From NCBI GenBank assembly GCA_046563655.1, contig CM102285.1, positions 14,880,001 through 14,944,000 of the forward strand: a stretch of 64,000 nt of DNA, read 5' to 3'. Positions 1-59,391 of this stretch are shown piece after piece. Position 1 is the stretch's first letter. Each line of letters begins with the position of its first letter. The position numbers and the translations under genes are program-made. Source of the DNA: Yuukianura sp. NJ FZ-2021 (lineage: Eukaryota). The notes under the pieces were generated by a model that did no database searches, was not told where the DNA came from, and saw only the letters and a program-made list of their open reading frames with translations.

Positions 1-57
1 TTATGGATTTTTGGATAGTTTTTTCAAAAAGTTTAAAAATTGAATTTTATTTTGAAG

Positions 58-5727: not shown

Positions 5728-20381
<14,654 letters not shown>

Positions 20382-21169: not shown

Positions 21170-22657
21170 CTACCAGGGTCTCCACATGTGCCCTTTGTCT
21201 ATGGTGCTTGTTCTGCCAAGGGGTTCGACCTTGAGAATTCTTGGGGTTGCATTGGGGGGTTCAACGTTGAGACTGCGGGGGGTTCCTGTGGGGGGTTTGA
21301 GTGAGAAGTCGATTGGACTTGTGTTGACGCCCTTATCGCTGCTGGAGAAACTAAGAGAGCTGGAATCGCTGCCACTACTCAGCGAAGTGTTTAAAGTGTC
21401 GCTGGAAGTAGTTGATATCGCTGGAGAAGCGATGAAACTGCCTGGAGGTGGGACGAGTGCCGTAAACGCTGAATTGTGTCTCATTTCCATTGGATTTGGC
21501 GGTTGGATTGGCGAAGGAGCTTGGATTTGTAATCGCTGCTGCTGCGTCTGCGCTTTGTTGTTGTTTGGATCTCCAGGATTTGGGGCTGGACAGACCGTTT
21601 GAGGGGGTACTTGAAGTGGGGGACTTGGTGGGGCAAAGGAAATATGTGGCACTGGTGGGGCCAAATTGAAGCGATGTGGGGCTGAGATCCCACCGGGTGG
21701 GGCTGAAGGATTCACTTGCTGTAAACCACTGATGCAACCGTTGAGGTGAGACGTCACGCGATTTTTGATTCCCGGATCCCCTATATCTAGACGTCCCATA
21801 TAACGACTTACCTGAAAATTAAATTTTGAAATTTAAACGATTTGATTTTTTAAAAAATTTTGAAATTCGGAGTTCGAAAAGTAGAAAAAAAAACGGACTA
21901 ATTAAAGTCCTTTGGTGTGAACTTCGTTTCACCTTATCTGTGAAGTCAAGTTTTGCTTTTCAAGGTGTAAAATTTTGAAATTCTTACACTGACTTTAAAA
22001 TTTTGCAAAATTAAAAGTGTCGTGGCTTGTTTAAACTAAAAACGAAATTTCATTTTTTTTTCAACCTTTGAAATTTCTCACCTCTGTTGCACATTCTGAG
22101 AATCCATTTTTGAATCGATGAAGCACGGTGGGATCACTAGCCATGGCGATGGCCAGTTGATTCCTCTGCACAGTTTGCAAATGACGAACTGTCAACTCCA
22201 AAATGTCTGCTTTTTCTAATTTGGAGTGCCGCGCAGGGTCTTTGCGCATGGCTTCCAGAAGAATCGCTTTCAGATCATTCAGACAGTTATTGATTCTTGC
22301 ACGGCGTCTTTTTTCCATTATCGGCTTGTTACTCTACAAAATCCACAAAAATACATGAAATTTCCTCAAATTTACAAAAATGTCAACTTCAAAAGTGAAA
22401 TTGAAGGCTCTCAGAAGAAAACAAAGAAAATTCAAACTTTTTCTACAAAATTTCCCAAATTTTAAATTTTAAAAATTTGTAATGACCTTGCGCAGTTCAC
22501 TTTTGGTTCCACTGTTGCTGTCCATGTCTTCAGTTCTGTCTGAAGCTTGGTGCATGAGTGGTGAGGGTGACGGACTTTGACGCTGAATCGCTGAATTTGC
22601 AGCGTCGTAGCCACTCAAGTAAGTCACGTGGTGATGATGCGTCGCTTCTTCCTTCAT
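21170..22657 (-). CDS. dpn: HES-family bHLH-Orange repressor, deadpan-like, 3 exons
   Basis: Exons 22657-22487, 22333-22082, 21811-21170; [24 protein letters not shown], post-[32 protein letters not shown] resembles Deadpan; PIDFS (CtBP-type) motif; C-terminal WRPW. Orthology to dpn rather than hairy is a recognition call. Confidence 0.85.
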
Positions 22658-22861
22658 TTCAATTCTAGACTATGTTAAGTTATGTTTTTATGTAATTTGA
22701 TGTAATTTTATGTTAGGAAATGTTAAGATTTTGTTAACTTATGTTTTGAGTAAGAAGGAAGTGTTCTTGTGCAGTATCAGAAGTGGACTGTGAGTGTTTT
22801 GGCATTCCGTAGGCTGAGATCCTAATTTTAGCTGCTTGTTAAAGCATCTGCTAAGGTGAAA

Positions 22862-22933: not shown

Positions 22934-25900
22934 TGCAACCAAAAAACTACTTTTTGCTTCCATCTGCACCGATCTTGCAACAGAACCACCTCTGTCGTCG
23001 CTCATTTCACAAAAATAACAATACAAAACATGTTCCTTTTCATACAAAACACAAAACATCTTCATTTTTTAAGTTTTATTGCAAAAGTGACCTCAAGTGA
23101 CCTCAATTTGACCTCGCCCTCCTCATGTGAAATCTTGTGAGATCCTCACTCGTGCAATTCCAAAAAAAAAAAAACTGAGCAAGAAAATGACGACTTGAAA
23201 ACTAACTGATTGTTACAGTATTAAGTTTCATAATTTAGAAATTTTTCACAGGGTTTTACTTTTTTCATGAAATTTTGATAACTTTGAATTTGAGTTTTTG
23301 AAAATGTGAAACTACGACATGGAATATTGGTACAAAGCGGAACAATGTAAAGGGTTCCTGGGCACCTGTAAGTCACGACTTTGATTTGACCTTGTGACCT
23401 CACTTTTAAAATTTATTTTCGAAAAAAAATTTATAATGAAAATTTTGAAGGGAATGATCCGGACTTGGGAACTCTTTCAGAATTTAAATTTTTGAGAATC
23501 CATCACACTCTTAAAATTTGAGTGGCAGGGGAGAGATGCGGCAAAATTTTAACAAAAGTTTGATGCCAAGTTGTGTTTGTCCTTATCACAAATCCATAAA
23601 TTTACAGTTTCTTTTGTGGAAAAGTTAGTTTTTGTTTCAAAAGCAGCATTTTGGCAAAAAGTAGGATGCTCTTTTGCACTTTTTAGTAAAGGTGAGTTAA
23701 GGTGGGCCTGGGAGGGAGGGAGTAAGTGCGAGTGTCGCGTGGGGCGGAGGCTTGTGGAGTGTGTGGAGGAATTTGGGATTGTGTGAGAACGAGGCCGAGT
23801 GATCGTTCCCAGGCTCCCTCATCCGCTTCTTTATTTTTTATGTCCACCGCTCTAAACCACTTTACAAGGAATCTTTACAAGCATCTTCTCAACCACCGAA
23901 CCCCCGGGCCAAAAACACACTTCGGACTAACACACCCGCAACCTTTGACCTTTTCCGCACAAAATTGACCTCACAGTCCTTTGGGAGGGTTCAAAATTTC
24001 AAAGTTTTGACGAATTTCATCAAAATCTCCAAAAATTTTGACGAATTTCATCGAAAGTTCAAAAGTTTTCACGAATTTCATTAAAATTTCCAACATTTTA
24101 ACGAATTCCAGCAATATCTCAATACAAACCTTTACAAAATCGGTTTCACATCTGCACCTACCAAAGTTATTCGGTTTTACTCTTATCTTCGAAAAAAAAA
24201 ATTTTTTTGCACAACTTCAAAATTTCAAATTTCAAAATTTTAACAACTATTGCAGTGTAAATTACAATCGCATCTGCGTGTTAAGAATTTTTTCAGTTTG
24301 TGCTTCTTTCGAAGTCTTTTTGTTCGGCTTTTTAGAAAACAAAGCTACAAGAAGTTTTTGGAGGGGAGCCCTTGAAGGGTACATCCGAACCAGAAGTTTT
24401 ACAGTTGTACCTAGATGGCGGGAGATTGTTAAGGGTGCCAGGGGCCCTTAAAGTGTACTTCCATTGTTTAAGTGATTGGGGTGGGAGCCCTTTGTTTTAT
24501 GAATGAAATCTAAGCAGTTGGTTGTGTGTTTGTGTTCGTCATCTGGATTGAGTAATGTGTTGGTGCTTGGGAATCAAAAGCCAACTGACTTCCGGTTCCA
24601 AAAGTACAACTTTTTATGCTTCTCACCATAAGGCCTCACTCTTCAAAAAATTACACTTTCAAAAAACCAAGTTAAAAAAAACGAAAAAATGGAAATTCTC
24701 ATGAATGAGCTACCGTTGGAATTGGAAATTTGGAAAAACGAGCGACAGACGCTCGGCGCTGCTCCATTTTTTCATTCAAACTTTTCGTTTTCCTCAATGA
24801 AATTACGAACCTTCCCAAAAAAAAAGTTAAAAAAATTGTTACTCCCACAACACACCGGAAGTTGAGTAAAATCACTTCTAAATTTTGAAGTACCCACTGT
24901 TGCTGTTTAAGTACCCACCAACCACCTGACCTCCTGTGACCCTTAACCCATCTGACTTTGGACTTTGGGACCCTTAAAAACCAAAAAAAAAAGTTCAGAG
25001 GATGACTTTGTCCTTTTGGACAAGTTGTTCTAAATTGAGACAATTGAAATTTGGGTGAATTTTTAACGTCTGTTGCATTTTGAAAAAAGTCAGGCGTGCG
25101 TGAAAACGTAAAGTTTTGGTTCGTTTGCTTCTCGGAATTCTTTTGTGAACAACACGCCAACAAAAAACGAAGACAAATAACTGCAAGGGGAGATCAAGAT
25201 CAAAATTTCGATCCAACCAAACAGGAATTTCAAAAATCTTCATCACTTCATCTTCTCACTCATTTCGGCCAGTTAGCCACAAAATATCGTCACTTTTCAA
25301 TAAATTTTTTGCATTTTTCGAAAAAAAAAGCCTTTACTGTACGTCGATGTTCCAACTGAACGTAAATTTTCTAGCAAATTTTGATTTAAATTCCCGTGAA
25401 CGGTGTTAAACTTTTTTTAAAAAACGGAAAATATGGAAAGTTTGAAAACTTTTTTTCGAAAATGAACTCGGCTTCTTTTGAAAAAGGGAATAAATTCAGA
25501 ACGGCACGGGGGCCCTTGAACCACTCTCATCTTTCACATTTCAAATCACGAGAAATTAATTTAAGGGCCCCCTGAAACAAAGGGTCTTCTGCTCCTGCAG
25601 TGAGTGTGAGACTCCCAAGGGGTCCCCCCGTCGTGACCTCTATTCCGTGACCTCAGCACATTCGATATCCACGCTTAAAATGGTTTTTCGAAAGCGTTTT
25701 TTCAAAATGATGTTTTTCGAAAAGCATTTTTTAAAATGATATTTTTGAAAAACAGGAATTTAAGACGCTTGTGCTCAAAATTTCAATTGAATCCGACCAC
25801 TCTAACGGTCTCACATCTTCTCAAGTTTCTTCCAATTCATTTCTGAGTTGAGTCCAAGAGCGGGCCCTTAAGGGCCCCTTAATTGTCCAAGGGCCTCTTA

Positions 25901-28900
25901 ATTGTCCGGATTTTCTGGAAGATGAAATGGAATCCGCAGCATCCGGCTCAAGCCCATTTCTAAACAATTTTTGAATCTGAAAAAATTGAATTGAAATTTT
26001 CGGAAATGAACCTGCCCAGTCAGCCTTGTTCCATTATGAAAATTTTTAGAGACTTTAACCTGCCCTTGGATTCAGTTTCAAGGGCCCCCTTCCAGGGCCC
26101 TGTCAAGGGACCATGACCTGTCTCTCTCTCATTACGTTGCAAAACATTTCATGTGTCACCTTGGACAGAGTAGAAGGAATCTTAATCCTTGTTCAGTTAG
26201 ATTCATTATTCATACGCAGAAGGGTTACGTCAGGTGGACCCCTTAAGGGCCCTCGGCAGCAAAAAGAAGTCCCTTCAAGGGCTCCTGGATGACAACAACA
26301 AAACAGGTAGGAAGACAATCGTGTCTTTTCCAAAATCCAGCATGATCTCAGCAACAAAAGTTTCTTCAACCCCATCGTAACGCCAAAAGCAACACTTTCA
26401 TTCAATTGTTCGTTCCACTACAATGAAATCCAAAATTTCAAAAAAAAAGGAAAAAAAAAGTTCGAAATTTTCTTTCAAGAAAAAACTTTTTTGAAAAACG
26501 CAGTCGTTGATGTATTTACGGTTTTTCTGTTTTAAAACAGACGCAGACAGGAAAGATTAAAATCAGAAAAAATGGAGAGTTGACCTTTGGTGGTTTTGTG
26601 AAATTGGTTTTCGCTGTAGGTGAGTGCAGTAGTCGTGATGGTCGTGAGGGGCCCTTAAAGGGGTCCTTAGTGGTGACTGGAGCCCTTAGAAGGTGAGAGA
26701 GACAAAGTGGTGTGAGAGGCATGTCATGTTCGTCCAAAAAGTCCCGGAAGGGTTCCCTTAAGGGACAATGACTCTTCTCAAGATCTTCTGCAATGATACG
26801 GCACAAAAAGACGCCTCTATTCTGCCAAAACCGAAAAAAATCAAAATTTTGATCAAAACAGACAAAAAAAAGTGAAATTTTTAAGATTTATGACATTTTG
26901 AACAAAGTTTGTCCCCACCCCCTTCTTGGGGGGCTATCAAATGAGGGGGTTAAACTAATAAAAACGGTGGTTTTTATGATAAATCGGTTGGAAGTGTTAA
27001 AAAGTGTGAGAAAAGTTTAAGAGATTGAGGAGATGTGCTTGTGGTGATCTTGAGAGGATTTCTTGGATTCATTTTTTGAAAAAGTTTTTTAAAAAATCCA
27101 ATTTTGAAAAGGAGTTAAATCCTCGAAAGACGTTCGGATGCATGAAGCCCTTGTTCAAAATTGACCACAAAGGGCCCCCTTTTCTTTCTTTTTAAAAAAA
27201 GCCGTTAATAAACTTGGATTAACTTTGGACTTGAAATGAAAATGTCACACCTCCACGGTCTAATTAAAATTTCAAAATCTTAAACTTTTCAAAATTTTCA
27301 ACTTTACACCATATAAAAAAATGGCTTTTTGTTAAATTATAGAAACTTAAGCCCTACAGTTTCTTTTATTCTGTCCAGTTGCGGACGCTTGTTTTTTTTT
27401 TCTCGATAAATTTTGAAAAGCTGAAAAATAAAAATTTGTTGAAAGAAGGAAATTTGCAAATAAATTGCAAATTACGGAGATCGTTGGTAGTTTTTGTGAG
27501 ATGGAGATGTGGCACATTAAAAATTTTTAGTAGCTGCGGTCGTTTTTGTCCAATTGTTGTAAAACCTGATGAAGAACTTTTCTTTTATGGGGAAAAATGT
27601 GTGGAACGTGACTAGATTTCAATTAGTTTTTTTCCTCTTTATTCCTTCAAAATCAAAATTGAATTTTTTGACAAAAGGGCCGAATTTTGACGTAACAAGA
27701 AAACGGGTTTGTTTCATCATGCAGCTGAGATGAGGTTAAAGCCAAGTGACAACCAATCCTCCTCCTCGCATTTAGTAGTTTCTTGTTCCTACTGTTCAGT
27801 AGCCTAATCAACCTTAACCTAACTAACCTAACAAAAAAACTAACCTAACAAATAAGTGAACTTTGATATTTGGTGATGAATGAGCGGGTGGTTGAGTCAA
27901 TAATGACAGAGTGTGAAAATTGTGAAGTTGCGGAGGAGGTATGGGGGGGTTTAAGTGGGCCTTGGAAGGAGGTCCTTCGAGATGCAAAAACAAAGAACAA
28001 GAATCAGGACTGAGCTAGACTCCACCAGATCATTCGCATCTTTAACGTTAATTTTTGTATTTGCAATGCAAACGGGCTCATTAACTGTCAAAACAATTAA
28101 AAAGAGACTCCACGTGACATCATTTCTGCAAAAAAAACATTTCCCTACAGGAATGTAATGAGGTGAAAACCATTAGTAATACACAGAAGAAAAAATTCGA
28201 AAAATGAAAAATGTTCAGAATTTTCAAATTCCGAATTCTGAAAAATTCTTAAAATTTAGAATTCTGATTTCAGGTGAACATTTTTCATGTTTAACGCCTA
28301 CAAACAACTCCGAATTTAGGATTCGAAGTAAAAAATAATTTTGAAATTTTGTTTTTATGGCGCTGATGCCCCTCCATATTTTTCTCGGCGCGCGTATTTC
28401 AAATCCTAATTTCGTATTTTTCAAAAAACCGCCATTAATTTTAACTTTTTTGTTCTTTGTCTCGATGAAGCGATGATCTTAGGAAGATTAGAAACTGCTG
28501 CCGAGATTTGTTCTTGTCAGCAGCATCCCTGGTCCAGGCAACTACCATAACACTAACCTCAACGAAGCCAAGTGTCTCCGAGAGCCCTTAAGGCCCTTCA
28601 AAATTAACAGAGGAAATGCATCCTTTGAAGGCCCCACCGCCCCCTTAAGTCCCCCCTCCAGTAACCTGTCTACCAATTAATCACTGGCCAAACAGAGCCC
28701 CACTCTGCATAATCTCCCTCTCCTGATCTCCTAACTGATGGATGAGATTTTCCTAATGAAAATGAATCTTCCCACAGATCACTTACAGCAGCATCCCTTC
28801 AACTCTTCATTTGCATTTCTAAGGGGACTCCCCTTAGAGCCGCCAAAAACTTAAGAAGGGGGCCCTTCATTATGCAAAAACATAAGACAGACTCTGGGAA

Positions 28901-29749
28901 AATTCTAAAAGTTTATGCCGACGATTCGGTAATGAGCCAGTGAGGAATTTCCACCTGCCGACTTTCTGCTCATCAACGTTTCAAAATTTCAAAAGTTTCA
29001 AAAAAGTTGAAAAACTTTTTCAAGTTATTTCTGTAGTAGTAGTTGAACTGTAAACACTGATTGGAAAAGTGTGCCTAGAGAGATAGGGAAAGTGTCAAGT
29101 GTTCTCGACGCTTGAAAAAGAAGCGTTTTGTCGCGTATGAAAAAATCGCTGATGATAAGTTTAACCCTCTGTTCTTCTGCACAGAAACCGCAAACTTTCA
29201 ACAAAAAAAAAAGTTTCAAAATTTTCTTCAGTTTTTTTTATCAGTTTCATTGAACCTTGTCGCTTAACGTTGCGTCCTCAGAAGTGGTTCTTGCAAACAT
29301 CGCTTAATCTTCAACTTTTAGCAAACTTTGAAACCATTAGCATCATGAGCCCTTTGACCCTTGGCGGCAAAGCCCTTCACAATCCAATTTCCAATTGACG
29401 TCAAAGGTCAAGGGTCAAATTCTCAATTTGCCCCATAAAATTTCCCACAAAAGCAACATCACCGTTAAGTCAAATCTTCCAAATTGCCAATAAGCTGGAT
29501 CAAAAACTGCTAAATTTTCTATGACGACTATCCATGTCATGAGAAGCACCCCAGAGGATGATAGTGTCCACTTGAGTTCTTGACGGGACACTCTAGTCTT
29601 CTTGACTAAAAGACTAGAAGACTAGAAGATAAGAAAGTGTGAGAAAGTCAAGTGCGTTGCACTTTGAATCTCGGACGAGCCAAAAACTAAAAAAATGTTA
29701 GACTTGTGGTTGTTTTTGGTGCTTGGGCGGATGATGTTGGTCGAGTGTC

Positions 29750-29958
29750 GGCACGTGAGTGTTCGTCCGTTTGCTTTAGGCTTGGGACACTCCAGTGTCC
29801 ACTTCTGTCCCAGCTTAAACTTAAGTTTTAGCATGGACACACTTCCAATCGGTCCGTTTTGTGTCTGTATGTCCAAAGGGGGCGGACGACTGGGGAGACG
29901 CGAAGCAACAGGTTTGGAGGGTTGCTTGTTTCTCAAAATCTGTGCCCCGCTTTCAGTC
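29750..29958 (+). promoter_or_regulatory. Putative core promoter of hairy-like gene: GGCACGTG E-box and TCAGTC initiator
   Basis: GGCACGTG at 29750-29757 (class B site bound by HES proteins); arthropod Inr-like TCAGTC at 29953-29958, about 90 bp before the ATG. Confidence 0.45.
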
Positions 29959-30046
29959 TCACTCCAACTACACTCTCAAGTACATCCGGAGGGCCCACCC
30001 TCCCTTTTTCAAAACAATACAGAACAAGTGCAAAGGGCCCACCAAA

Positions 30047-32179
30047 ATGTGTTCAACGGAATCCATCACAGTGGACCCACCAAGTAGCTCTGGTGGGGCC
30101 GAAAGCAGCCCCACTACAGTCGGGAAACTGTCGGATCCAAACAACAATCATCAGAGAAACCCAAACAGACGAGTAAGTTTAGTTTTGCAAATTTGAAAAG
30201 AGTGACAATTTTAAGTTTTTCGAAGTTTTAAAAAAATTGAAAAAGTTGAGGTCAAGGGTGAAGAGTGTAGCCCTTAAAGTGTAGTATAATTAAGGAGCAC
30301 TTCAGTTTTTGCTGGAAAATTTGAAATTTTTAGGTTAAGTTTTCAAATTTTTGAAAGTTTAAAAAAAGTTGAGGTCAAGGGTCAAGAGTGTTAGGCCTTA
30401 AAGGGTACTACTTAAGGGGCAGTTTTTGAAACGCCGCAGGGCTCATGTCTCCTCAGCACCTGGCAAAAATGAGTGTCTGGTCATAAAAATACAAATTATG
30501 GACAATTGGACAGACGTCCAAGGGACATGGGCCCTTAAAGACTCCGAACCATGTCAAAACTCCCGCTTCTGAGTCAGGAAGACACGGAATTTTTAGATTT
30601 GAAACCTTTTGTCTCTTTTTACGAGGGCCCTTAAAGGGCTCCAAATCACTTTTTATGATTTCTCTTCCACCGTACAATTCAGAAGGAACGTTACAGAAAA
30701 TGTTTTAAGTTTTTTAGAAAAAGAAACTCTTCGGTTCATTTTTTTTTTCAAAATTTCAAACACGATTACTTTTTTACGATTTCCTTCTCCAATAAACAAT
30801 TTTTGTAACAATTGTGGTGAAACACATTTTCAAAAAAACGTTTTTCAAAAAGAAAGAATTCTGCTGAAACTTGGTTTTTGTAACTTAAGATTTTTGACAA
30901 TTCCAAGTGACCCTTCATGTTTTGGGGTCCCTTGAAGGGCCTAGGAAGTTTTTGTTTTTCGTGGATTTTGGAACATGATTAGAAGTTAGAAGGCTAAAAG
31001 TTGAGACTTTGGAAGTCCTTCCAGGAGGCAAAAGGGCCCTTCATCTGAGTGTTGAATAACAAAAGTCATAAATATTTGAGTGGGGGTACCCTTGGAGCCC
31101 TTTTAAAAAGGCGGGGGTACCCTTTGTTTTTCTCCAAGAGAAGCACTTGACACTTTGCCTTGATGAGAAGAAGGAACAACAGATTCCTTTTTCTCACCAA
31201 ATCTTGAGGGGACCCTTAAGGGACGTCTTAGAGCAGAGGGCCCTTAAGACTTATTTTTTCTCTTTTGTTTCAGAGCAACAAGCCGATAATGGAGAAACGA
31301 CGCCGTGCTAGGATCAACAACTGCTTGAATGAGCTCAAAGGGATCCTGCTGGAAGCCATGCGCAAGGACCCTGCGCGGCACTCCAAATTGGAGAAAGCAG
31401 ACATTCTGGAACTGACTGTGTCGCATTTGAAATCGCTGCACGGTGCAGACTGTCGTGCGGCGCAGACTGTCGTGACGAGTCCGAATCCTGCCGAACTTTT
31501 AGCACGATACCGAGCCGGTTTTACCGAATGTGCGACGGAAGTGAGTCGGTTTTTGTCTTCACCGAAGGCTGACGGTATCGATCCGGCGAGTACCGCTCGA
31601 CTGATGGCTCACTTGAACGAATGTCTGACAAAAGTGTCGGGGTCACCGAGGTCACCGAGCTTAAGTCCGACCGGAACCGTTCCGATACCGAAGTTGAGTA
31701 ATGTCTCAAGTGTCAGCGGCGACGGAACACAAAATTTGACGACTACGCATGCGTCCACACCTATAATTTCCCTTGTGCCTTCACGGTTACCGTCGGGGGA
31801 AATCGCTTTTGTCGTACCGGGTTTCAGTTCGATACGAAACGGTATTCAAATTCAAACCGGCAATCCAGCATCTTACCAACCTCTACTTTCTCCGGAAGTA
31901 CCACTGGAACTGACAGTATCGTCAGCACATGCCCACAACTTTCATACTGCCCACCACCATGCTGGCAGTACTTCGTCTCCGTCGTCGTCAACATCCTCCC
32001 TGAGTCCAGCATACTCCTACGCACCCATTGCACATGCGCATCACTCGTCTTTCTACAACTCACATTCTGCACAGCATCATTCCAACCAATCCTCACTGCT
32101 CAACTACTCTCAACAGCCATTGGCCCTCGTCACTCCCAAGAGGGACATGGTTGACCTCAGCTGTTGGCGGCCATGGTAG
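30047..32179 (+). CDS. h: HES-family bHLH-Orange repressor, hairy-like, 2 exons
   Basis: Exon 1 30047-30172 (MCSTES...NPNRR|gtaagt), exon 2 31274-32179; bHLH, Orange (YRAGFTECATEVSRFL), LVPSRLPSGEIAFVVP hairy-type block, QPLALV (cf. Hairy PLSLV CtBP motif), WRPW; miR-7 site in 3' UTR as in fly hairy. Confidence 0.85.
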
Positions 32180-32294
32180 AGGTCAATGACCTTTGACCTC
32201 CAAAGGCCAATGACCTTTGACCCCGAGAGGTCAATGACCTCACATTTTTTGCTTCAATCAACTAAAGCAACTTAAGTTTTTGCACTTCCCAAAT

Positions 32295-32358
32295 TGTGAT
32301 ATACGCCCTCCTAAACTTCAAAAGTAGAAGAAACAACAATAATCAACAAAGTCTTCCA
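32295..32358 (+). promoter_or_regulatory. 3' UTR miRNA sites: K-box core (miR-2 family) and GY-box (miR-7)
   Basis: TGTGATA at 32295-32301; ACAACAAtAATCAacaAGTCTTCCA at 32333-32358, close to the miR-7 reverse complement ACAACAAAATCACTAGTCTTCCA. Confidence 0.8.
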
Positions 32359-33830
32359 ATTCACTTGTACAAAATCTAGTTTCTTGAAAAAGTTTAAAAT
32401 TTCAAATTTTGAAACTTGAAATGTAAACCATAAGTTGCCTTTTTAGAACTTTCATTCCATTTCATTACGCTCCAACTTCGAGAGTCGAAAAAAATGTTTT
32501 AAGTTAAATTTGAATTAATTAGTGAAACTAATTAGTTAAAATAATTTGGATTTAAATTATTTATCAAACTAATAAAAATTTTGAGTACAACAACAAGATT
32601 TCGAGATGAAAATGACGGCGCTCAAAAACAAACTTCAAAAAATCTTAAACTTTTGTTCTGAAAACCAGTGACCATTTCTTGTTCTAAACAAAGTTGTTTG
32701 GTTTGAAAAACCTCAGTTTCTTGTTCTGAACAGCTTTTTTAAAAAACGGTTGCTTACCTTTTTGAGAAGTGATTTTGTAATTAAGGGTTTAGAAAGAAGC
32801 GGTTAGTTAAGGTAGTGGAGGGAGAGGATAATAGAAATGTTGGAGGAGAGTGGCGTTGGTGGGCCCTTGGAGTTGGTGGGCCCTTAGAAATAGAAATGAA
32901 TGTTCTTTTGCCTTATGAGGAAGGAACAGGTGGATTTTCAATAGAATTCCAGAAGGCCAAGGGCTCTCCAAGGGCCCTTCAAATCCCAGACTTCAAAAAA
33001 CTTAACATTAGAAAAGACGGACATAAGAATAAAAATGGATCTCCTTTAATTAATTCTTATGATTTTAAGGCCCCACAAAGTGTCCTGCCGGAGGGTACTT
33101 GGCCTTGGAGACAACATTCCTCTGTCCAAGTACCCCCACCACCAATGTCCAAGTACCCCCACCACTAACTACTCTGGAAGGAGACTAATGATGATAAATG
33201 GAGTCTTATGGAATCGGAGTATCGTAATCCGACGTGACTAATCGACTCGACCTGCCCATCACTTCTGCAACTCAAGCCCAAGGGCCCAAGGGCCCTTAAG
33301 GGATCACACAATAAGGTCAAGCGCACTTAAGCTTCGCCTCAAGTCATCTTCTGAGATCAAATTAGAAGATACGACACAAAAGCTTCCCAGACACACGTCA
33401 ACAGGTTTACCGTTTTCAGGGGGCCCTTAAGTCCCCTCAAACTCATCTTTTCCCGCCCTTTTTTGAAATAGTTGACCCTTGACCTGTTTTAAATCATGAC
33501 CTTAAGTATATGATAGGGACCTAATCAATGAAAACTAAAGTTAACTTTACAGTTAGTTAGCATAAAAAGTTAGTTTTTAGTAGGCGTTCTAGTTGAATCC
33601 AGTTTCTACTTGCTCTGTGATTGGTTAATTAATGACCTTATGCCGGATGCTGAGTAATTGAGTATTTAAGTGGCGGACTTGGCGCATGCGCAGCTGAATT
33701 GCTCAATTGCCAATTGAACTGGATTGAGGATCCGATTAAAACCAGTATTTCCACTTCAATTAATCTCGATTAATCACAATCATAATTTATTCCAACCACT
33801 ACTGTCCCCTCGTCCCTACAAAAAACACAA

Positions 33831-33950
33831 AAATAACCATAATAAAGCGTCGACATCGCTGGCTATGATTTTCTTGTATTTTTAATTTTTCATACAAAAA
33901 TAACCATAAAGAAGCCTGTACATCGCTGGCTATGATTTTCATGTATTTTT
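33831..33950. repeat. Two-copy tandem duplication of about 66 bp
   Basis: AAAATAACCATAA...ACATCGCTGGCTATGATTTTC occurs twice in tandem. Confidence 0.7.
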
Positions 33951-36248
33951 CGCTTTCCATCGCCGCAAACTGTTCCACAAGCAGTGTTTCTATGAAGTTA
34001 TGTGCATGAATGTTTGCATAATTTCCTGTGGAGACTGTTGTTATTTCGGAAGTGTCTTCCTGTCCATTGTTGGTGTCCAGGATGACTTCCGGTTGGAGAC
34101 GTGGAAAGTTCATGCAGATTCCTTTTGTCCAAGTCCACTCTTCCACATCACCACGCCCTTAATTAAGGGCGTGAGGCCCTGGCACAGTGTTACCAAAAAT
34201 ATACTCATCTCATAGGGTGGGGTCACTCTGTTCCACATCTCATCTGCATTCCAAAAATAGTTACTCCCTCCACTACTGTAAGTCAAGTAGCTTCCAGACA
34301 GGGCGGAGGCCCTTATTCCCCTCTCCAAGGGCCCACGGACAAAGGACCCTTAAAATAATCATAACTTCCAAGCCAGCTTCTGAAATAAAACTGAACCGGA
34401 TCAATTCAGAACCACAGGTTTAGGATTTCTAAGGGCTTGGCTTTTGTAGGTATCAATCAGGGAGCCCTTAGAGATTTGAAACTTTGAAATTGGATTTCTA
34501 GCCCTTAGGAACAACATAACCTAGTCTAATGTACTGAGGCTAACCTGTTAGTTTTGACCTTTGAAGGGTCCAGGGCCCTTAGAAAATAGGAATGTGTTGA
34601 AGGTTTGGAGACAGAACCTGCTTCTTCCCTTAACGGTTCTTTTGTTTTTGGAAACAGAAGCTTGTGAGGATTTCCTAATTATCCCATCAGCCTCAAGGGA
34701 GGAGAGAGGCTCTAAGGGGTCTGATTGGAATTGGAAATGAAGGGCTGGGGGCCCTTCACTTCCACTTCAAGTCTCTCCAGATCCAACGGGATTAATGTTG
34801 AGAGAGGTCAAATCCAAACACGTCTCACGTGACCTCAACATTCAATTTTCAGTTTTAAATCCAAGGGACATATCTCATATTTAAATCTTCGGATCAAATT
34901 TTAACAAGATCAAGTACCCATGGACCCTTAAAAAAATTCAGCCTTAATCTGTCTCTGATGATGAATTTCCACTCCGCCCAAAAATATTTTCTTTAAAGTT
35001 AGGCCAGATTTAAGGTTAGGTTAAGATCGCAAGTTGAGCAGGTGAAGTTGATGTTGAGGTGAGCCCTTTTTCGGTGTTTAAGGGCCCCCTTTTGGCTGTT
35101 TAAGGGCCCTCTTCCTCGGTGGACCCTTTAACGTTTTTGTGTGATTTTAGATTGAAAGGTTTCCCGCATTTTGATGCTCAACAAACCATATCGCTCTGTT
35201 CATCTTGATTTTTTGGGTGATCGGATTGGAATTTTCAGTTTTTTAGAAAAAGGATTTCCAAAATCCAAAAACTGAAAAAAAAAAGATGGAAAAAAGAAGC
35301 TTTTTATTTTTTTACTCATCAGATCACACAACTCTTTACAAATCCAAGGATGAACAAACAACTTTTCAAAAGTAAGGATTTAAAAACTGTTTTTTCTGAA
35401 AATCTGTTTTGAAAATGTGAAAAAGGAGTGAAAAAGCTTCTTTTCTTTCGTTTTTTTTTGTGTCAATTGAATTGGATCTCCAAAGAAGTTTTTGGAAGGG
35501 CGAGAAAGTAATTATTTTCGGTTGAGTGAGATTTCCAGAAAAAGAAAAACAATTGGAAGTGTTTTTTTCGTGTGTGGGAATGATGGAAGCGTTTTTCAGA
35601 AAAAAAGACTTGGGGGGTCGATTTCAAAATTTAGTTTTTCCAAAATTGTATTTTTGGGATTTCTGGAAAACTTCACTTTTTCGTTGGTTCCCTTAAATTG
35701 TGATAAATCCCACACTTGACTCTTAGCAGACTTAATTAGGATCCAATTTCAGAAGAAAAAAAGGGAGCAAGTGGGGAGCCCTTCAAAAACTAGTTCACTG
35801 ACAAAGAAAATCCAGAAGGGGACCCTTGAAGTCCTCCTCTCCAAACACCACGTATGTCATTCGAAACCGCAATTTCCAAAATTTTCAAAACAAAATTTTC
35901 ATGTTTTGACCTCCAAAAAATCTGAAATTTGTACACCCAAATCGCGTCCAATTTCAACGTAAAAATGTCCGAGATTCCAAAACGATAATCTGTGAGATTT
36001 CGAAAAATTTTCAAAAAATGAAAACACGAGTTGAGTTAGCTATTACACCAAAATCGAGAAACTGGTGTAACAATTTTACTTTTTGAAGTTTAGCTTACGA
36101 TCATACGGGATTTTGAAGCTCGGAAGCTTCTAAGAATCTAAGATTAATTGGAGCAGATTACTACGACATGAATTCAGAAGGTTACAATAATTCTTGAATC
36201 CAAAGTGTTTACACTTATGACTGGTTATGGCTGTAAGGGCCCAGTACT

Positions 36249-36816
36249 TTACTTGTCCTTGAAGTCAAAGGGGTCCTTGGCTTCTGTCAACTTGAACCAA
36301 TGTCCACATTCACATCGTTGTGGAGCTCCCTTGTACAGCCACATGTATCTGATGTGGAACTGATCTTCGTGACAAATGCAACCGATGATTCGGCCATCAT
36401 GAAACGATGAAATTAGAGTTGGCTTATCTTTTGTTCCAGGGACATCAACTTTCAGGGCTTTGCAGTTGAATGGATCCTGTAGTATAAACAATTCAATTAA
36501 AACGTTAATTTACTCAATTGAAACGTCGAGTTAGTACTCAATTAATGAAATTCCTAAGTGAGGAGAATCTTACGTCGTTTCCTCGGGCAATGGCCTCCAG
36601 TTCTTTCCGTTCAAGCCCAGTGGCATGCTCCATTGGATCGGCCATCACTGTAAACAAGTAGAGCATTTAGTGACATAAATCGGTCGATAGACGAACGAAA
36701 AAAACGGTTAATCGATTGATTTTGTTACTTTTTTGGGCTCCACGAACGGAGGTAGTAATCAGCTGTGGCCTTGTTCGGCTCAAGGAAAGTGCCCCTCGAC
36801 AAATGAGTCCTGCCAT
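36249..36816 (-). CDS. COX5B: Cytochrome c oxidase subunit 5B, mitochondrial, 3 coding exons
   Basis: Exons 36816-36729, 36647-36574, 36476-36249; Arg-rich transit peptide, DPMEHATGLERKEL, GTKDKP, RIIGCIC and RCECGHWFKL zinc ligands. Confidence 0.96.
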
Positions 36817-38371: not shown

Positions 38372-40438
38372 ATGGGAGCCCAACTAGGCAAGGAAGACCA
38401 GAACAGACCCGCTCTAACGGAAGCGGAACTTCAACAATTAAAATCAACGTTTAGCAATATCAGAGCTTTCCAACACTCCGGAAAGCACGGTGCAGATGCT
38501 CAACATTCCAATGCATGTCGTACCGACGTATTTCAGGTTAGAATTTCTTTTAGTTTAGAAAACTCAGTTTAACATATGTTGAGATTAGAGTTAACGTATG
38601 AAGTTGTTGTTTATGCAATTCCAGAGTTTCTGCTGTCGTTCTCTGGATGAGTTCCTTTCGCAACAAATAGCTGCAATAATTGAAGTCGGATCAAGATCAA
38701 AAGAGCCCAATACAATTACATTCCAAGCATTCCAGCATTTCGTGTCAACTGCACTCAAAGGCGAGTTTGACCAGAAGGTTCAATGCATTTTTTTCATGTG
38801 TTCTGTTCCTCCTGTGTCACCATCGTCATTTTCTGCTCAGACAACTGTTACTGGATCCAGCATCTTGAAGGTAATCAAAACTTCAATTAACACAATTACT
38901 GTTATGCTTCATTTCATGTCTGTGATTAGCTGACTGCTTCAATCGTGACATCGTACGTTTGGCATTCGTTTCAAGATACACCCGGATTGAAGTCATGGAG
39001 TAATTGTCTTACGGCTACCAGTCAAGAGTCACGTGGAATCCAACTGGCAACGTATCTGCTCCACGATTTACTGTATCCATCAGGTCTGCCTAAGGATCTA
39101 ATTACTAAACAAGAAGATTTTGGATCTAGACAGTTCACTCTGGATGAACTCATCACTGGACTGGCCAAATCATCGCTGTTCCAAACTCTATTCAACTCTG
39201 TCATCAGCAATTGCTTCAAGTTTGACATGGATGTGAACGTTGTTACTAAAAACAAAGTTCCACGGTGCTTGCAAGTTAACCCAACACTGCTACCTACTAA
39301 CTTCACAATGTTAACTGAAGAGTCAGTCATGTTTCTCAATTCACTGCTTCCACCAGAGTTACAATCAAAATGGCGATTCCTCTTTTCATCTATGTGTCAT
39401 GGCGAAAGTTTTTCCAAGCTGCTTGAACGTATCCAAGAAAAAGGAGCTACAATCATCATCGTCAAAGATCAGCATGACCGAATTTTCGGATGTTTCGCAC
39501 CTTCTAGTTGGAAGCTTGGTCCAAAATTTTTTGGTAATCTCCAAGGTTGCTATAGCATCCAATTGAATTTCCTACAACAGGTTGTTCAATAACTCGGGGT
39601 TTTCGAAATTTTGAGTGAAAATAATTTTTTTTTGCCCGAATTCCGTTACATTACATACAAATCATTACTATAAAAAGGCACGACGAACCAAATTTTGTTA
39701 GTTATTAAAAAAAACTAGAAAACGTCGAGTTATTGAATAATCTGTTGTAGAAATCAACAATCTGTTTGTTTACCAACCTTGATAATTCCTTAATTTCCCG
39801 AATTGAACCGTTACTTGAACTTTTTTTTTATGTTTTCAGGCACTTCTCAATCGTTTTTGTTTCATCTGGCTCCAAGGTTCGCATCTTACGGAACGACACC
39901 TTACAATGAGAACTTCCAGTATTTGAACATGGGACAGAAAACTTTACCGAATGGATTAGTAAGTTCACTTTTTAGTTTACATTTTTTTAAATTGTTAACT
40001 TAATTGATAATCTTGCAGGGTATGGGTGGAACCCTGGAGTATTTTGGACTTTGGCTTGATTCTGAATACGGCAAAGGGATTTGCAGTCCCTCCTGCACAA
40101 CTTACACATGTCCGCAGTTGTCCGTTGAAAAAGAGTTTACCATAAATCGGTTGGAAGCATGGGGCGTCGGTCCAGAACCGGAGAAGGAAGAGGTAACATT
40201 ACCATCAATTCCGTCATTCCATCATACCGTCAATTACGTCATTCCTTCATGCCGTCATACCGTCAAATCCGTCATTCAACAAATTAATCAAGTTTCTTTT
40301 TTGCAGGGAGTTCGAGATCCAAAGAATATCAGTATTCTGGACAAAGATCCTGAGCTGAGAGGCGTTCTGGAAGTGATGGGAAAGAAAGTGAGTGCAAGCG
40401 ACGGTTACCGTGATGTGGATCCCATAGAAATAGAATGA
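38372..40438 (+). CDS. MEAK7: TLDc-domain protein (TLDC1 / MEAK7-like), 6 exons
   Basis: Exons 38372-38536, 38625-38870, 38930-39533, 39840-39958, 40019-40192, 40307-40438; N-terminal MG, WRFLFSSMCHGESFSKL, IFGCFA, FFGTSQSFLF, YNENFQYLNMGQKTLPNGLGMGG, FGLWLDSEYGKG, CTTY..PQLS, SILDKDPE. Confidence 0.92.
39575..39747. mobile_element. Tc1/mariner-type MITE (173 bp) in TLDC1 intron 3
   Basis: TIR CAACAGGTTGTTCAATAACTCGGGGTTTTC matches the reverse complement of the right end at 26/30; TA on both flanks. Confidence 0.75.
40201..40278. repeat. 8-9 bp microsatellite (CCGTCATT-like) in last TLDC1 intron
   Basis: About 9 degenerate copies of CC(G/A)TCA(T/A)T. Confidence 0.7.
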
Positions 40439-42774: not shown

Positions 42775-45700
42775 ATGGGCAACTTGTGCTCCAAAAGAAA
42801 AGGAAGTGACAGCAGCACTTCCGTCAAATCGGATCCGTAAGAAAAAAAACACATGACCTTTGACCTCTTGACCTTTGACCTTTCACATGTCCCTGATTTG
42901 TGAAAATTTGAAAACTGAATTTTGAATTTCATAAGTTCCAGGAAGGGATCTGCAGAGCAAGTGGAGAATCACCAGCAAAACGTCAAGAAGCAAAAGGAAG
43001 GCGCTGAAAAAAGTAGCGTCGTTGAACGTTCCAGTGCTGCGGAAGCGACTCCGTCGACAATCGCTGCAGAAACACCGGAAATGTCATTTCAAACGAAAGA
43101 CTCCGTTAGGAGCAGAATAGTCAGAGAGGCAGAGCCATCTAGCGTCTCTGGTAATTTCATTAAACTTATTAAATTATTTTTAAATATATTATTTTATATT
43201 AATGGTTTATTTTATTTAAAGGGGATTCCATGTCTTTATCTTCGCCTACGATGATCAGTGCTCCACATGTTCCAGATTTGCCATTTCCGTCTAAACTTCC
43301 TGCGGAAATTAAAAAACAATCAGACAACATCAAGAATTTGCTGGTCGGAAGAGTAGCAAAAGTCAAATCCGTCACTTCTTCAAAAAAAATCACTCTGTAC
43401 ATTTGTGCAGCCGATTCTCAAGGTATAAAAAAGTACAGAGTTGTTCAAAAGTTGTCCAAAACGGAAGTGAAAGTTAGACAGGAGTTGAAAATTTTCAAAT
43501 CATTGATGTGCGTTTGATCATTTTTGACGGAGGTTTTACACGTTTTTCAAAAATTTGTTTTCGTTTTCGACTTGCTTTTGAAAGGCTCTGTATGTTTTTT
43601 AAAAAGTACAACAGTTGGCGGTTTAAGTTTTTCCATTTTTTTTTACTGTTTTTGATGTTTTATGTTTTATATGAATTTTGTGGAGATGTGTGATTAGACG
43701 GCTTTTGGAATCCAAGCAACACCGCCTCCGCCATCCTCCTTTTTCTTTATAATTGCTCACTTTTTCAAAAAAGAAAGTTTGTTTTTGAAAAACTAAAGTT
43801 TAGCAAAAATAGAACTGGAAGAAAGAGAGATCTTTTGGTGTATTGAATGACACTTGAATTCAATTTGAACAACTCACTCTCCGCTTTCTTTCTTAGAAAA
43901 CTCTCTCGGGTTACTTTCCAAGTCGATTAGCAACCAAAAACGTCTTTTCATTCATTGTACTAAAAAATTAACTTTTTTGAAATTTTGAACTTTTTTGTAG
44001 ATTTTCGATTGGAAAAAGGCCACCTCCACACTGAAGTTTATCCGGGACTACGCGAGTTCTGTTCCAAAGCGGGATTTGAATTACATGTGACAGATTTGCA
44101 CTGGAAAACGGATTTAGAGATGAAACAGGATCACGATTTTCCTGAACTTTGTTTAGGCGAACTCAAACGTAACATTTAAAACTAAATTTTTCAAAATTTT
44201 GAACTCAAAAATGAAAATTTGGAATGAATTTTGAAATTTAATTTTGCATTTTAAAATTTCAGGTCAACAGGAAGTGGCTCACGTAATTCCGGTTTTGTTC
44301 CTCAGCAATTCACTCGGCTCTCCTTTACTGCCAAAAGTACGTTCACATTTAGTTATATTTAAAAAATATATTAAAAAAAATATATTAATATGTATTAAAA
44401 TAATATATTTTATTTGAATTGAAGACAATGGAGCAACAGGATTTCGAGATGGCTTTGTCCAACGTCTCTTCTAAAACGGGGAAAGCCCTGCTGGAGAAAT
44501 GGTACAAGTTGGACGCTCATGCTCAGCCGCAGTGCTACCGTCTCAGCCCCATTGCTGACCACATTCCCAACATTCAGGTGACCTTTGACCTTTGACCTCA
44601 GACGAAAATTGACCTTTTGAACAAATTTTGACCCTTGACCTTTCTCTGTTTTTGTTAGTCGGCTAACAGCAATGACAAGACGGAAGCCATTTCGGAGTGG
44701 CAAAAAGTTGTTGATGAAATTCTGGACACAATGCTCAGGGTTTTCCCGAATGAACTCAGGGACACCTACCTCACCACTGTCATTGAACAGGTTTTCAAAA
44801 AAGTTTTCAAAATTTTGAAAAATTTCAAAATTTCAAATTTTTTTTAAAGGAAATTCATAATTCGATCTTCATGAGTCGGGATGTTGGTAAGAGGAGTATC
44901 TGGACGAACAGATCTTGGACGGGCAAACAGCCGCAGTCTCCGGACATGCTCACTCCAGCAGAAGTGGAGAAAAATAGAAGACTAGAATCTCTGCACAACG
45001 AGCTCAAGGTGAAAACTTATTTAATTATTAACATCAAATATAATATATTTTAATTATTATATGTTTAATAGAATCAATTAGTTGGAGATAGGATCTTAAC
45101 ATTTTCTGTCAAGTGGAGAGAAGATGGGATTTCATTGACTGATGCTGAGCATCAGAAATACTTGCAAGACGTCTCTACTCAACTCTCAAGTCACCTCAAA
45201 ACTGCCATTCAAGAAATTATAGAAGAAGAGACAACCAAGGTAACAAAGTTTGGAGTTTTTTCAGCAATCCCATTCACAAACTTTAAAAAATGTTAAAAGA
45301 ATGTATATTTTGAAAAAATTACATAATTGAAAAAAACCAAAAAAAATATTTTGAGGTTCTACTGAGATTCGAACTCAGATCACGAGATTCAGAGTCTCGG
45401 GTGCTAACCATTACACCATAGAACCGATGTTGAGGGAAAGCGCCAAATAACATCAACTTCACCTTCTGTGTATATTCGCAATGTCTTGAAAATTCGCGTT
45501 TTGCGAATGGCTTACTTCGACAGTTGAAATTGACAAATTGCCAAAAATTTGCACAACACATTTTGAATAGCTTGACTTCCACAATAATACCAAAACTAAT
45601 CGCGCCTCTGCTGTTAATTACTTATATTTCGTTCAATTACGAATTAATTGTGCAACAAAATGAATTACTTAAGTAATTACTTAATTAATTAATATATTTT

Positions 45701-48700
45701 AATGGATTTTCAGGGAAAGTGGAAGAGTTGTTACGGAGTGAGTGGAAGTCTCTGCTCAGAAATTATGCACCACACTCTCTTCTGTCAACAAGGAGCCAAA
45801 TGCTGTCTTTCCTTTGACAATGTCATTGCAGATATCAAAAGGTTTGGAAAAAATGAAATTTTGAAATTCATTTTCCGAAATTTTGTTGTTGTTGACAATT
45901 TTTTTTCTTGAAATTTCAGTTACGTAGGTTCAGACGCTTCGAATCATCCGCTAGTGATCCACGGTCCACGGTCGTGTGGGAAAACGTCTTTCCTGTCCCG
46001 TGTAATTCACCAAGCATGGACTTGGTGCCCAGAATCAGTGGTGGTGTTCAGGTTTGCTGGATTGACCCAGGACTCAAGGTCATTAGGTCAACTACTCAGA
46101 ACAGTCACGACTCAAGTAGCACTTCTACTCACTGGCAGGAACTACTGGATCCCACATGTAAGGTCAAGGTCATTCAGCTCAAAGGTCAAAGGTCAGTGAC
46201 CTTTGAGGTCAAAAGTCACGGCGAAGTCTAAACTTTTGTGATATTTCCAGAATGCCAACTGCTACGTCAAGGAATTGTACAAAATGGTTTCCGGCTCCAC
46301 TTCTGTTGTCATTGTCATTGACGGACTAGATCGGGTAAGTTAACATGTGACCTAAAATTGGAAATTTTGAAATTTGAAATTTTGAAAATTTTGACCTTTG
46401 ACCTTTTTTCAGCTTACGACCAATGATGCCTCTGCGTTGGACATGTTAGCAGAACCACTTCCTGCGAAAATGAAGCTCATCGTGTCGTGTGCCGATGACA
46501 CGCCAGTCTTTCAACTCATTAAATCAAAAATCAAACAACCAAAGGCATTCGTCATGGTACGTTTTCAACATTTTAGTTTTCAAAAATTTTTTGTGAAATT
46601 TTGAATTCCTTGTTTTGAATTGTAGATGCCAAGCCTGAGCTTATTGTCTGCCGAGAGCCTGTTGACGGGCTCCATTCTTCAGTACAGTCACAGCATCGAT
46701 TCTGAAGTGCAGAAACGCCTATCTGCCAAACTCAGCAATTCTGTGCTTCCCATTTATATCAAAGTAATAAATATATAAATAAATATATAAAATAATTATA
46801 TTAAATAATATATTTTATTGGTGATTACAGATTTTAGCTTGGCAAGGAGCTATCGACAGCACTGGATTCACAAATCTCCAGCAAACTTCACTCGAATCTC
46901 TCGCAAATTCTCTTTTTGATTTTCTAGAAAAAGTGTTGGATCCGGAGAAAGTAAGGAATTCAAAAAGTCAAAAAACTTCAAAATTTTCAAATTTTCATTA
47001 CTTCCTTTTCTAAAAAACCATTTTTTCAAAAATTTTAATTATTTTTAGGTCAAAATTGCACTGGGCTTTCTCTGCTCTTCAAGAAACGGACTGTGTGATT
47101 CCGAACTTCTGGATTTACTTGCTCACTCGTCCAGTTTCGACTCAAAAATTACTTTTGGTAAAACACTAAATGCAAAATAGTTTCATAAACTGAAATTTTC
47201 AAAATTTTGGAACTTTTTCAAATTTTAGTTCCATGGGCCCCTGCTGCTGTGTTCTTGGCTCAACTGTTTCGTCTGTTGGGTCCTTTTCTGGACTGGCGTG
47301 TGTCCAGTGACACTTTTGTTGTCCAGTGGAGAGATGCTCTGCTTCTGGACATGGCCAAAGAGAGATACATAGGAGACATCAAAAATGGAAACAAACAGCG
47401 CCAAACACTACTCAACTACTTCAAAGTACTCAAAATTTTGAAAAAATTTGAAATACTTTTTAAATTTTAAAACTTTCTTTAAATTGTTTTACAGGGTGAT
47501 TGGAAAGACGCCAAAGATGGGAGATTCGTAGAATGGAATTCGGCTGGAAATTTTAAACGAGCCGCCGAGGAAATTCCGTTTCTGGAATGTCATATTTCTG
47601 GATCCATCAAATCCACTTACTTGTTCAACCTGGATTGGATTTTGAAAAAAATTCAAACAGTTTCCGTTTTTAGTGTAAGCCACTTTTTAAAAACTTTTAT
47701 TTTTTCTTTTACTTTTACTTTCAGTTTTATAAGTTTCTCCAAAAACATACATGCTCTCCGTTTCCTGATATTTTGGCCACCGCTTCTGCCTTTCCAGTTC
47801 GTGAATGGCTTCGCTTGATGCTTTAAACTTAAACATTTTCCAAAATTATGAAATTTTGAAAACTTCTGATTCACTTTCGAAATTGTGAAAATTTCTTTGG
47901 AATTTCAGGTTCTAGAGGACATTGACCTTGAAGCGCGGGTCAATGACCCTGATTTGACCCTGCTCAGACAATCTCTGGAGCTGAGTGCTTCTGCCCTCAG
48001 TTACGACTCTGCCCAGTTCTACGGTCAACTGTACAATCGTCTTCTGCCTTACTTTGGTAGCGAAGGGCCCCCCAAGGACCCCTCCAAGTGCCCCTTCACC
48101 CACTCTGTGTTCCAAGCAGCCAAGGCCTTCAAGGGCCCCTCCTTTGTCCCCCTGTCACCATTTCTACATAGTCCCAAAGACTATGATTCTTTAGTCGCAA
48201 GCTCCGCCTCTTTTCGGGATCTGGACAACTCGGACACGTTTTTTGACGAAGTTTACCGAATGAAGTCGAGCAATCAGTTTGTTGTGAGTTTGTCCACTAG
48301 TAAAGAAGAAGTTATGGTCTGGGACGCCTATGCTGAAGTAAGTTTTTCAAAATTTAGATTTTTGAATTTTTAAATTTTTGAAAAATTTTGAACTTTTTAG
48401 AAAACTATCCGGACGCTGAAGGGCGTGCACAATCCAGTATCGCTGAAAGTGATTGATGAGCATCGCTGCGTGATTCTGTGTGGACGTGAGCTCATTACGT
48501 ACAACATAGACTCTGGGACGGAGATCACTAAGTTGAAGGGCGTGATGAACCAGAAGATGCCATTCTATGGTCTCCATGACGACAACCACATTGTGGCCAT
48601 CTCCAGGAACCGCATGTATGTCAACCTCATGAACCTTGACACGGGCGACTGCATCACGACTTTCAAGGTCGGAGAAGATCGCTTCCTCAACTCACTTCTA

Positions 48701-50030: not shown

Positions 50031-51165
50031 GTGTCATATCACTTGACCTCTTGACCTTTGACCCTCTTTGGGTTGTGGACACAACCTTCCTCGCTTTTAG
50101 TTAAGTTTTTATTTGATTTGTTACTAAAAAGTTAAAAGTTAAAACTGTCATGTTGAACATCAGGTTAAAACGCAGGACGTCACACTTAGATTTTTATAAG
50201 AATTGTCTAAAAACTAGCCCAGGTAGGAAAGTTACGTTGGATTGAACTAAGGTAAGATTTAGTAAGTTAATGAAGTTTAAGCCAGCTAACCTTACTTCAA
50301 ATTTTAAAAAGTTAAGCTTTGAATAATTGCTGGTCAATTCATTACTTAGCTGAAGGTAGCTCCGAGAGCATCCTTGACCTTTGACATCTTAACGCCCAGT
50401 ATTTAAAACTCAATGGACAGCTAAACAGCTTAACTTTCTTCTTAGAAAACAAACTTAATTGTAATTAAAACTACTGGATTAAAAAAACTGTCAAAAAAGG
50501 ACTTTTTGAAACTCATTTTTCACTTTTTACTCAAAAAAAAAGTTTTGTTTGTGATTTGTTTTAGCTCTTTGTTTCAATGTGAGGAAACAATTTCCTCGTC
50601 ATTTTTATTTGAATTGCTCTTTCAATTTGAAAAGTTCCAATTGCTCATTAAATAACTAAGTAATTTTTAGGTAATTAATTAATTTTTAATTGTAATTAGG
50701 TAATTAATCAGTTGATTTTTGAAGTTACAGTGAGTCGATTTCATAAAAATAAATTATTGAGGCCAGACGTTAGGGAAGTTTAAGTTATATTAGGCTGTGG
50801 GAATTTTGCCAAAAAAAATTTTTTTGAAAAAACTTTTGACTTTTGAAGGAATTTTGGAAATCGAATAACTGAACACTTTAAGCGGGGCACACTTCGTGCC
50901 CTTTGACGTTTTCGGCCAACAGCAACTTCGTCTAACACAAAATTGTGAAAACGCAAAACAGTTATACACAAAATAGTCGCATTACGTAACACAACTCTGC
51001 TTGGTAGGGTGGATCAACTACAAAAGAATATATTTTAGAGGCAGATGTGCTACAAAAAAAGTGGAACGACGTTGAATTTATGCTGGGGCATAGGTCTTTG
51101 ACCCGGTCAAATTAGTCATTGACCTTTGACCTCGGGGTCAAAGGTCAATGACCTTTGAAAGAAAC

Positions 51166-59391
<8,226 letters not shown>

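Follow-up and report, generated by a model that had tools for sequence, protein, structure and literature searches.

Short recognition sequences repeated over a stretch of non-coding DNA are known from several systems. In Drosophila, the stripe elements of hairy and eve contain clusters of sites for Kruppel, Bicoid and Hunchback. Sequence painting is also known from the Drosophila X, with the MSL/CLAMP recognition elements, and from C. elegans, with periodic A/T clusters or rex motifs. Here we describe a 64,000-nucleotide stretch of the genome of Yuukianura sp. NJ FZ-2021 (contig CM102285.1, positions 14,880,001 to 14,944,000; hereafter the window, in which all positions are counted), where about 12 kb around a hairy orthologue are filled with copies of one short motif. 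An earlier note on the same DNA, made from its letters alone, had described these 12 kb as a domain painted with interlocking palindromes and had suggested a lineage-specific mark of a developmental locus. From sequence analysis, we propose that the cis-regulatory landscape of hairy may be saturated with putative sites of a single kind, which one sequence-specific DNA-binding protein would recognise, a reading that we regard as having an even chance of being correct.

A single motif is concentrated around hairy

Of the 32 copies of the hexamer GGGCCC in the window, 29 lie between 24442 and 36242 and the others at 47235, 48065 and 48133, which turns the estimate of the earlier note (about 25-30 against about 3) into counts of 29 and 3. 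The four longer strings which that note quoted are also all present where it placed them. Among 100 dinucleotide-preserving shuffles of the window, GGGCCC was counted 4.39 times on average and 12 times at most, so that none (0/100) reached the observed 32. Longer words show the same distribution: CCCTTAA/TTAAGGG is found 34 times in 24.3-36.3 kb and 0 times in the remaining window, TTAAGGGCCC 13 times in the domain and 0 times elsewhere, and AAGGGCCC/GGGCCCTT 30 times and twice, respectively. For the pentamer AAGGG/CCCTT, 117 of the 164 copies lie in the 12-kb domain, compared with 47 in the other 52 kb (equivalent to 10.8 for a stretch of the same length). When the best 7-mer of each 12-kb block is compared, that of the block holding hairy reaches G = 159, while in the blocks without overlap with the domain this value is at most 35 (less than one quarter).

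The 117 AAGGG cores of the domain were aligned in one orientation and a refined weight matrix was derived. Their consensus is yTTAAGGGCCCy. Only the positions from about -4 to +9 of the core, some 13 in all, are informative; further out, the flanks are random, with an information content of about 0. With this matrix, 73 sites are detected in the domain (12 kb) at a threshold of 12 bits against 5 elsewhere (52 kb), that is 6.1 per kb against a window background of 0.096 per kb, or about 60-fold enrichment. At 10 bits, there are 104 sites in the domain, balanced between strands (51+/53-), and 18 in the rest of the window. Once the motif was masked, no second word of comparable enrichment was detected in the domain. 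None of the partner motifs searched was enriched (domain/outside): Su(H) 5/9, N-box 11/70, CACGCG 0/5, CACGTG 3/10, RGGTCA 33/130, TAATTA 11/57 and TTTATG 13/64.

Each unit, an asymmetric 8-10-mer that occurs on both strands, consists of two self-complementary halves. Among the 29 GGGCCC of the domain, the AA/TT extension is present on one side only in 24, on both sides in 3 and on neither side in 2. Perfect palindromes are scarce (AAGGGCCCTT, n = 3; CCCTTAAGGG, n = 5). The interlocking palindromes of the earlier note are therefore real as strings but largely a by-product of the asymmetric unit, and they form where units abut or overlap, TTAA and GGGCCC each being self-complementary. Similarly, GGG and CCC separated by 0, 1 or 2 nucleotides are found 29, 16 and 20 times in the domain, compared with 3, 3 and 2 times outside, because the core is followed by NNC, which is usually CCC.

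The painted domain spans 5.7 kb upstream of hairy, its 1.1-kb intron and 4 kb downstream. The density of sites of at least 11 bits is 7.0 per kb upstream, 13.7 in the intron, 1.1 in coding exon 2 and 7.8 downstream; the exon limits used for this count were a few bases off the final gene model, which does not materially change the counts. One copy of GGGCCCACC lies 7 nt upstream of the hairy ATG and another at 29991. The sites are gathered in patches (24.36-24.5, 25.5-26.7, 27.0-27.5, 28.5-28.9, 30.5-31.3, 32.8-33.5, 34.1-35.1, 35.7-35.8 and 36.2 kb), separated by gaps of 0.5-1.5 kb. They are clustered, with 42 gaps of at most 25 bp compared with 14.8 +/- 3.2 under random placement (maximum 31 in 2000 trials). 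Strong sites begin at 24364, and the last ones, at 36232 and 36265, flank the COX5B stop codon (36249-36251), where the earlier note had seen the signal end.

Outside these limits, two further observations concern the motif or its edge. Outside the domain, the matrix has its strongest matches, of 18.3 and 19.3 bits, at 48060-48140, inside an open reading frame of a gene labelled NWD in the earlier note; there AAGGGCCC is read as Lys-Gly-Pro codons, and Pfam gives no family for that open reading frame. A 30-bp tandem repeat of 4.4 copies (23991-24122) is situated 240 bp left of the first site, between the domain and the upstream region of the dpn-like gene.

Comparison with other HES loci

For the comparison with relatives, metagenome contigs were scanned with an alignment of orthologues, and 80 HES loci were kept from 231 metagenome stretches encoding a relative. 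No painted locus was found among them. They contain 37 matrix matches in 344,243 nt, i.e. 0.107 per kb against 6.1 per kb here, which is the level of the background, and TTAAGGGCC is found 0 times in these 80 loci of other organisms. The painting is thus lineage-specific, as had been proposed.

The closest metagenome locus, L001 (3.8 kb), encodes a protein with 62% identity to the hairy orthologue. Its non-coding DNA can be aligned with the window over about 1.5 kb in total, and parts of the intron are about 70% identical. The sites of the window adjoin these conserved blocks or fall within them, although the blocks cover a small part of the domain and come from one relative. Directly after the conserved element at 33183-33265, the window has a cluster of CCCAAGGGCCCAAGGGCCCTTAAGGG, where the counterpart in L001 is CCCATAGCCCATGGG. 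Weaker, degenerate counterparts are also found at other sites, with GAGGGCCCTGGAG in L001 for GTGGGCCCTTGGAG, CGACCCTTCAT for GGGCCCTTCAT, CGACCCCATC for GGGCCCACC and CTATTAAAGGTTT for CCCTTAAAGGGCT. At the remaining aligned places, L001 carries motif-like sequence in a different arrangement, or nothing where the window has an insertion of 9-19 nt. The count of AAGGG is above the expectation of a mononucleotide model in L001 (17 vs 7.5), L002 (19 vs 8.3) and L012 (20 vs 8.9), which is a weak hint at most. Most simply, weak sites of the AAGGG type would be ancient here, whereas the extended consensus would have arisen and multiplied only in the lineage of the window.

Two of the other loci are rich in a different word. 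L002 (positions 1-6352), the locus of a more distant hairy orthologue, has 38 occurrences of (AACT)n or ACTAAC-GTTAGT in 6.4 kb. L018, which holds a HES paralogue and comes from the metagenome sample that also contains L002, has 32 in 11.8 kb, 25 of them at 5000-9500, upstream of the gene; in the other loci this word occurs less than once per kb. A different word may paint these loci, or the genome may simply be rich in microsatellites.

Proposed sites for one DNA-binding protein

Because the unit is asymmetric and used on both strands, lies outside coding sequence, is clustered by conserved blocks where L001 can be aligned, turns over fast and is carried by micro-duplications, we read its copies as putative binding sites. 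Among the options listed in the earlier note, sites for a DNA-binding protein fit best, while the CpG-island analogue and the nucleosome signal do not hold (see below). Since no other word is comparably enriched after masking, the hairy landscape would be saturated with the sites of one factor. Under this reading, one sequence-specific protein would recognise the asymmetric 8-10-mer yTTAAGGGCCCy on either strand, and its sites would occupy the cis-regulatory modules of hairy beside the conserved non-coding blocks. In the lineage of the window, sites would have been gained or sharpened through point changes, small indels and micro-duplications. The factor would act on the entire hairy landscape and not on one enhancer. 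We infer in this way both that a protein binds the motif and that hairy is regulated through it.

Concerning the identity of this factor, a 9-10-bp asymmetric site would suit a three-finger C2H2 or a THAP protein. Among the papers listed in literature searches on four 10-mers and on GGGCCC, none describes the motif as a factor site, as judged by title or abstract. The Kruppel-type site, AAGGGTTAA, has the AAGGG core in common with the motif but differs in its 3' half, which is CCC in the motif. The THAP1 target THABS has the core TxxxGGCA with five invariant bases (PMC2879526), and TAAGGGC of the motif fits T-xxx-GGC, i.e. four of these five bases. At the fifth invariant position, 110 sites display C (72), T (21), A (9) or G (8); a THAP1-type site was thus rejected, the final A of the core being present in only 9/110. 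THAP proteins are numerous and their specificities differ among members (PMC2879526), and a THAP protein as the reader is a lead only.

Several points weigh against sites for a single protein. Between the motif and any of the factor sites checked, there is no full match. Moreover, 9.5% of the domain lies within a site, which is far denser than usual enhancer clusters and leaves room for a structural or chromatin role. With one alignable relative, a gain in the lineage of the window and a loss in L001 cannot be told apart. Finally, the apparent avoidance of the core word outside the domain, an argument in favour of such sites, loses strength in higher-order models. TAAGGG is observed there once for 9-21 expected and TTAAGGG 0 times for 3.7-7.1 expected. 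With a first-order model, AAAGGG, AAGGGT and TAAGGG are the 3rd, 4th and 9th most depleted among 1922 hexamers. This is a hint drawn from 52 kb only, a small sample, and at second and third order only AAAGGG stays among the 12 most depleted hexamers, TAAGGG dropping out.

Alternative explanations

The motif might instead belong to a genome-wide domain code, painting a group of developmental regulators, or of Polycomb-type or topological domains, that a chromatin or architectural factor would coat and delimit. In favour of such a code, the painting covers the whole locus and ends within a few bases of the stop codon of the neighbouring gene, core-containing words are depleted outside, and the density is far above that of usual enhancers. 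However, only one site of at least 10 bits, a weak one at 23347, is present over the next gene and its flanks (17.2-24.3 kb), although this dpn-like HES gene is a developmental regulator too. This unpainted neighbour, although a single comparison, speaks against a generic code marking developmental loci. In addition, the domain is patchy and not evenly coated, and it has no property of a CpG island: the observed/expected ratio of CpG is 0.70 in the domain compared with 0.81 and 0.80 in its flanks. A CpG-island analogue, which the earlier note had listed, was rejected because this ratio is lowered and not raised. We therefore consider a genome-wide code unlikely. A narrower version can be imagined, in which a hexapod lineage would possess dedicated locus painting: one factor would read TTAAGGGCCC and coat or delimit the territory of hairy and perhaps of a few other loci, the word would be selected against elsewhere, and the whole would have been built since the split from L001. 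We hold this version to be doubtful as well.

The painting could also be a neutral by-product of mutation or mobile DNA, through footprints or solo ends of TTAA-targeting transposons with GGG...CCC termini, remnants of motif-rich elements, or seeds of a 10-bp microsatellite (GGGCCCTTAA)n. It is true that certain sites lie inside the 9-19-nt insertions relative to L001, that the piece 25677-26328 may be multi-copy in another organism (organism B, run X4, see below), and that four micro-duplications hold the motif: 25870..25907 (19 bp x2), 32851-32885 (17 bp x2.1), 33276-33295 (8 bp x2.5) and 35064-35113 (22 bp x2.3). These four explain just a handful of sites, and no array exceeds 2.5 units. 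As the principal source of the sites, excision footprints of a TTAA transposon were rejected: a footprint should retain TTAA to the left and to the right, which is the case for 0/29 of the GGGCCC, and 0/34 CCCTTAA lie outside the domain in spite of ample other intergenic and intronic DNA in the window. The flanks have no common sequence, and the sites are kept out of the exon and, where L001 can be aligned, near conserved blocks. By self-BLAST of the window, the only repeats in the domain are small local duplications and none is dispersed, and repeat finding in the window returned only short or low-complexity families. A decayed dispersed repeat, a miniature inverted-repeat transposable element or a satellite was therefore rejected, given no flank similarity beyond the motif, no dispersed repeat by self-BLAST and micro-arrays of only 2-2.5 units. 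The unique flanks described in the earlier note are thus confirmed, as is its exclusion of a satellite, and the motifs do not align beyond the unit as fragments of one decayed repeat family would. A neutral origin of the painting is, in our opinion, quite unlikely.

A third possibility is that DNA mechanics alone matter, TTAAGGGCCC-type sequence making the locus bendable and positioning or stabilising nucleosomes without a dedicated protein. A 2026 study predicted a TTAAGGGCCC-like 50-mer with a period of about 10 bp as the most cyclizable DNA (PMC13238741). This most cyclizable DNA, approximately (TTAAGGGCCC)n, consists of the same 10-nt word as the motif of the domain, and a few stretches of the domain are phased over about 45 bp (e.g. 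25862-25907). However, this property requires helical phasing over tens of bases, which the hairy domain does not display. Most sites are solitary, and there is no site-to-site phasing at 10-10.5 bp (Rayleigh P = 0.13-0.79); a marginal phasing at 11 bp has P = 0.002 before correction for the 12 periods. The SSS/WW autocorrelation of the domain is also no more periodic than that of four 12-kb control blocks. The nucleosome signal suggested earlier is thus not supported, phasing at 10-11 bp being no stronger than in these control blocks, and we regard a purely mechanical role as very improbable.

Chance, or an assembly or sequencing artefact, has a negligible probability, since 0/100 shuffles reach the GGGCCC count and since contigs of two sequencing studies, X1 and X4 (the latter from organism B), both carry motif-bearing sequence. 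The contigs of X4, a second and independent study, cover motif-bearing stretches such as 25793-26328, with 4 differences, and because these independent contigs carry motif-bearing stretches, the motif is not an assembly artefact. These runs also led to two observations at the same place. In X4, the window stretch 25677-26328, with 5 GGGCCC, is represented by a 653-bp contig closing on itself, at a depth of 92 compared with about 4-5 for the other X4 contigs; in organism B, the stretch could be circular, amplified in tandem or present in multiple copies. In X1, a second variant is present at 25850.

Genes and other features of the window

The hairy orthologue encodes a product of 343 aa with HLH and Orange domains and a C-terminal WRPW; the nearest named hairy protein is that of the springtail Allacma fusca (46% identity, full length), which points to a hexapod that is probably close to Collembola. 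Beyond COX5B, on the other side from hairy, are SF3B5, a TLDc gene and then the gene labelled NWD. The coordinates of the features of the locus are given in Table 1.

Table 1. Features of the hairy locus and its neighbours (positions in the window)
Feature	Position	Strand	Remarks
Motif-painted domain	24364..36277		about 88 sites of at least 11 bits (73 at 12 bits); consensus yTTAAGGGCCCy
hairy orthologue, coding exon 1	30047..30172	+	MCSTES...NPNRR
hairy intron	30173..31273	+	GT..AG; densest in sites; holds blocks conserved with L001
hairy coding exon 2	31274..32179	+	bHLH, Orange, ..CWRPW, stop; 1 site
Conserved non-coding element	33183..33265		83 bp, 91.6% identical to L001, far above surrounding DNA; downstream of hairy
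dpn-like HES gene	21170..22669	-	bHLH exon 22061-22333, ..WRPW exon 21170-21832; divergent from hairy; unpainted
COX5B, last coding exon	36249..36509	-	stop codon 36249-36251, at the right edge of the domain

Other repeated sequences are present at the hairy locus. The intron contains a local duplication of about 90 bp (30211-30302 and 30335-30424), each copy with AGGTCAAGGGTGA or AGGTCAAGGGTCA. A 24-bp x2.5 array of AGGTCAATGACCTTTGACC, which resembles a nuclear-receptor half-site, begins at the hairy stop codon (32180-32240), and AGGTCAATGACCTTTGACC-like sequence is also found at 46167-46218 and 51115-51158. Outside the domain, 39561-39766 is a very high-copy repeat, whose contigs have many loose ends and a summed depth of 11867 (X1) and 405 (X4). 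At 52111-52762, units of about 131 bp are repeated in tandem, with 96-97% identity between copies. The sole Rfam match in the window is a tRNA gene at 45354-45425 (-), outside the domain.

Comparison with known systems

If one protein does read about 100 sites filling the territory of a regulator of segmentation or neurogenesis, the locus would be a natural experiment on regulatory domains defined by sequence. It would also show at what speed such a definition can be built up, since a locus with 62% protein identity lacks the painting but has kept the neighbouring non-coding blocks. A genome-wide map of motif clusters would tell a one-gene oddity from a new class of domain mark, and the simplicity of the motif should allow its factor to be pulled down directly.

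The hairy domain resembles the segmentation enhancers of Drosophila in that one short motif is repeated on both strands in the non-coding DNA of a pair-rule/HES gene. Site turnover is fast in both, and tandem micro-duplication contributes in both. Unlike the site clusters of Drosophila, the domain displays a single motif over the whole 12 kb, at about 6-7 sites per kb and with no second motif. With the painting by MSL/CLAMP elements, rex motifs and A/T clusters, it has in common a short word that is enriched in a defined territory and scarce elsewhere. Those words are read by a dedicated factor and act at the scale of a chromosome or of many genes, whereas the painting described here covers the landscape of one gene; if locus painting is indeed at work, it would be a sequence-encoded domain mark at that scale.

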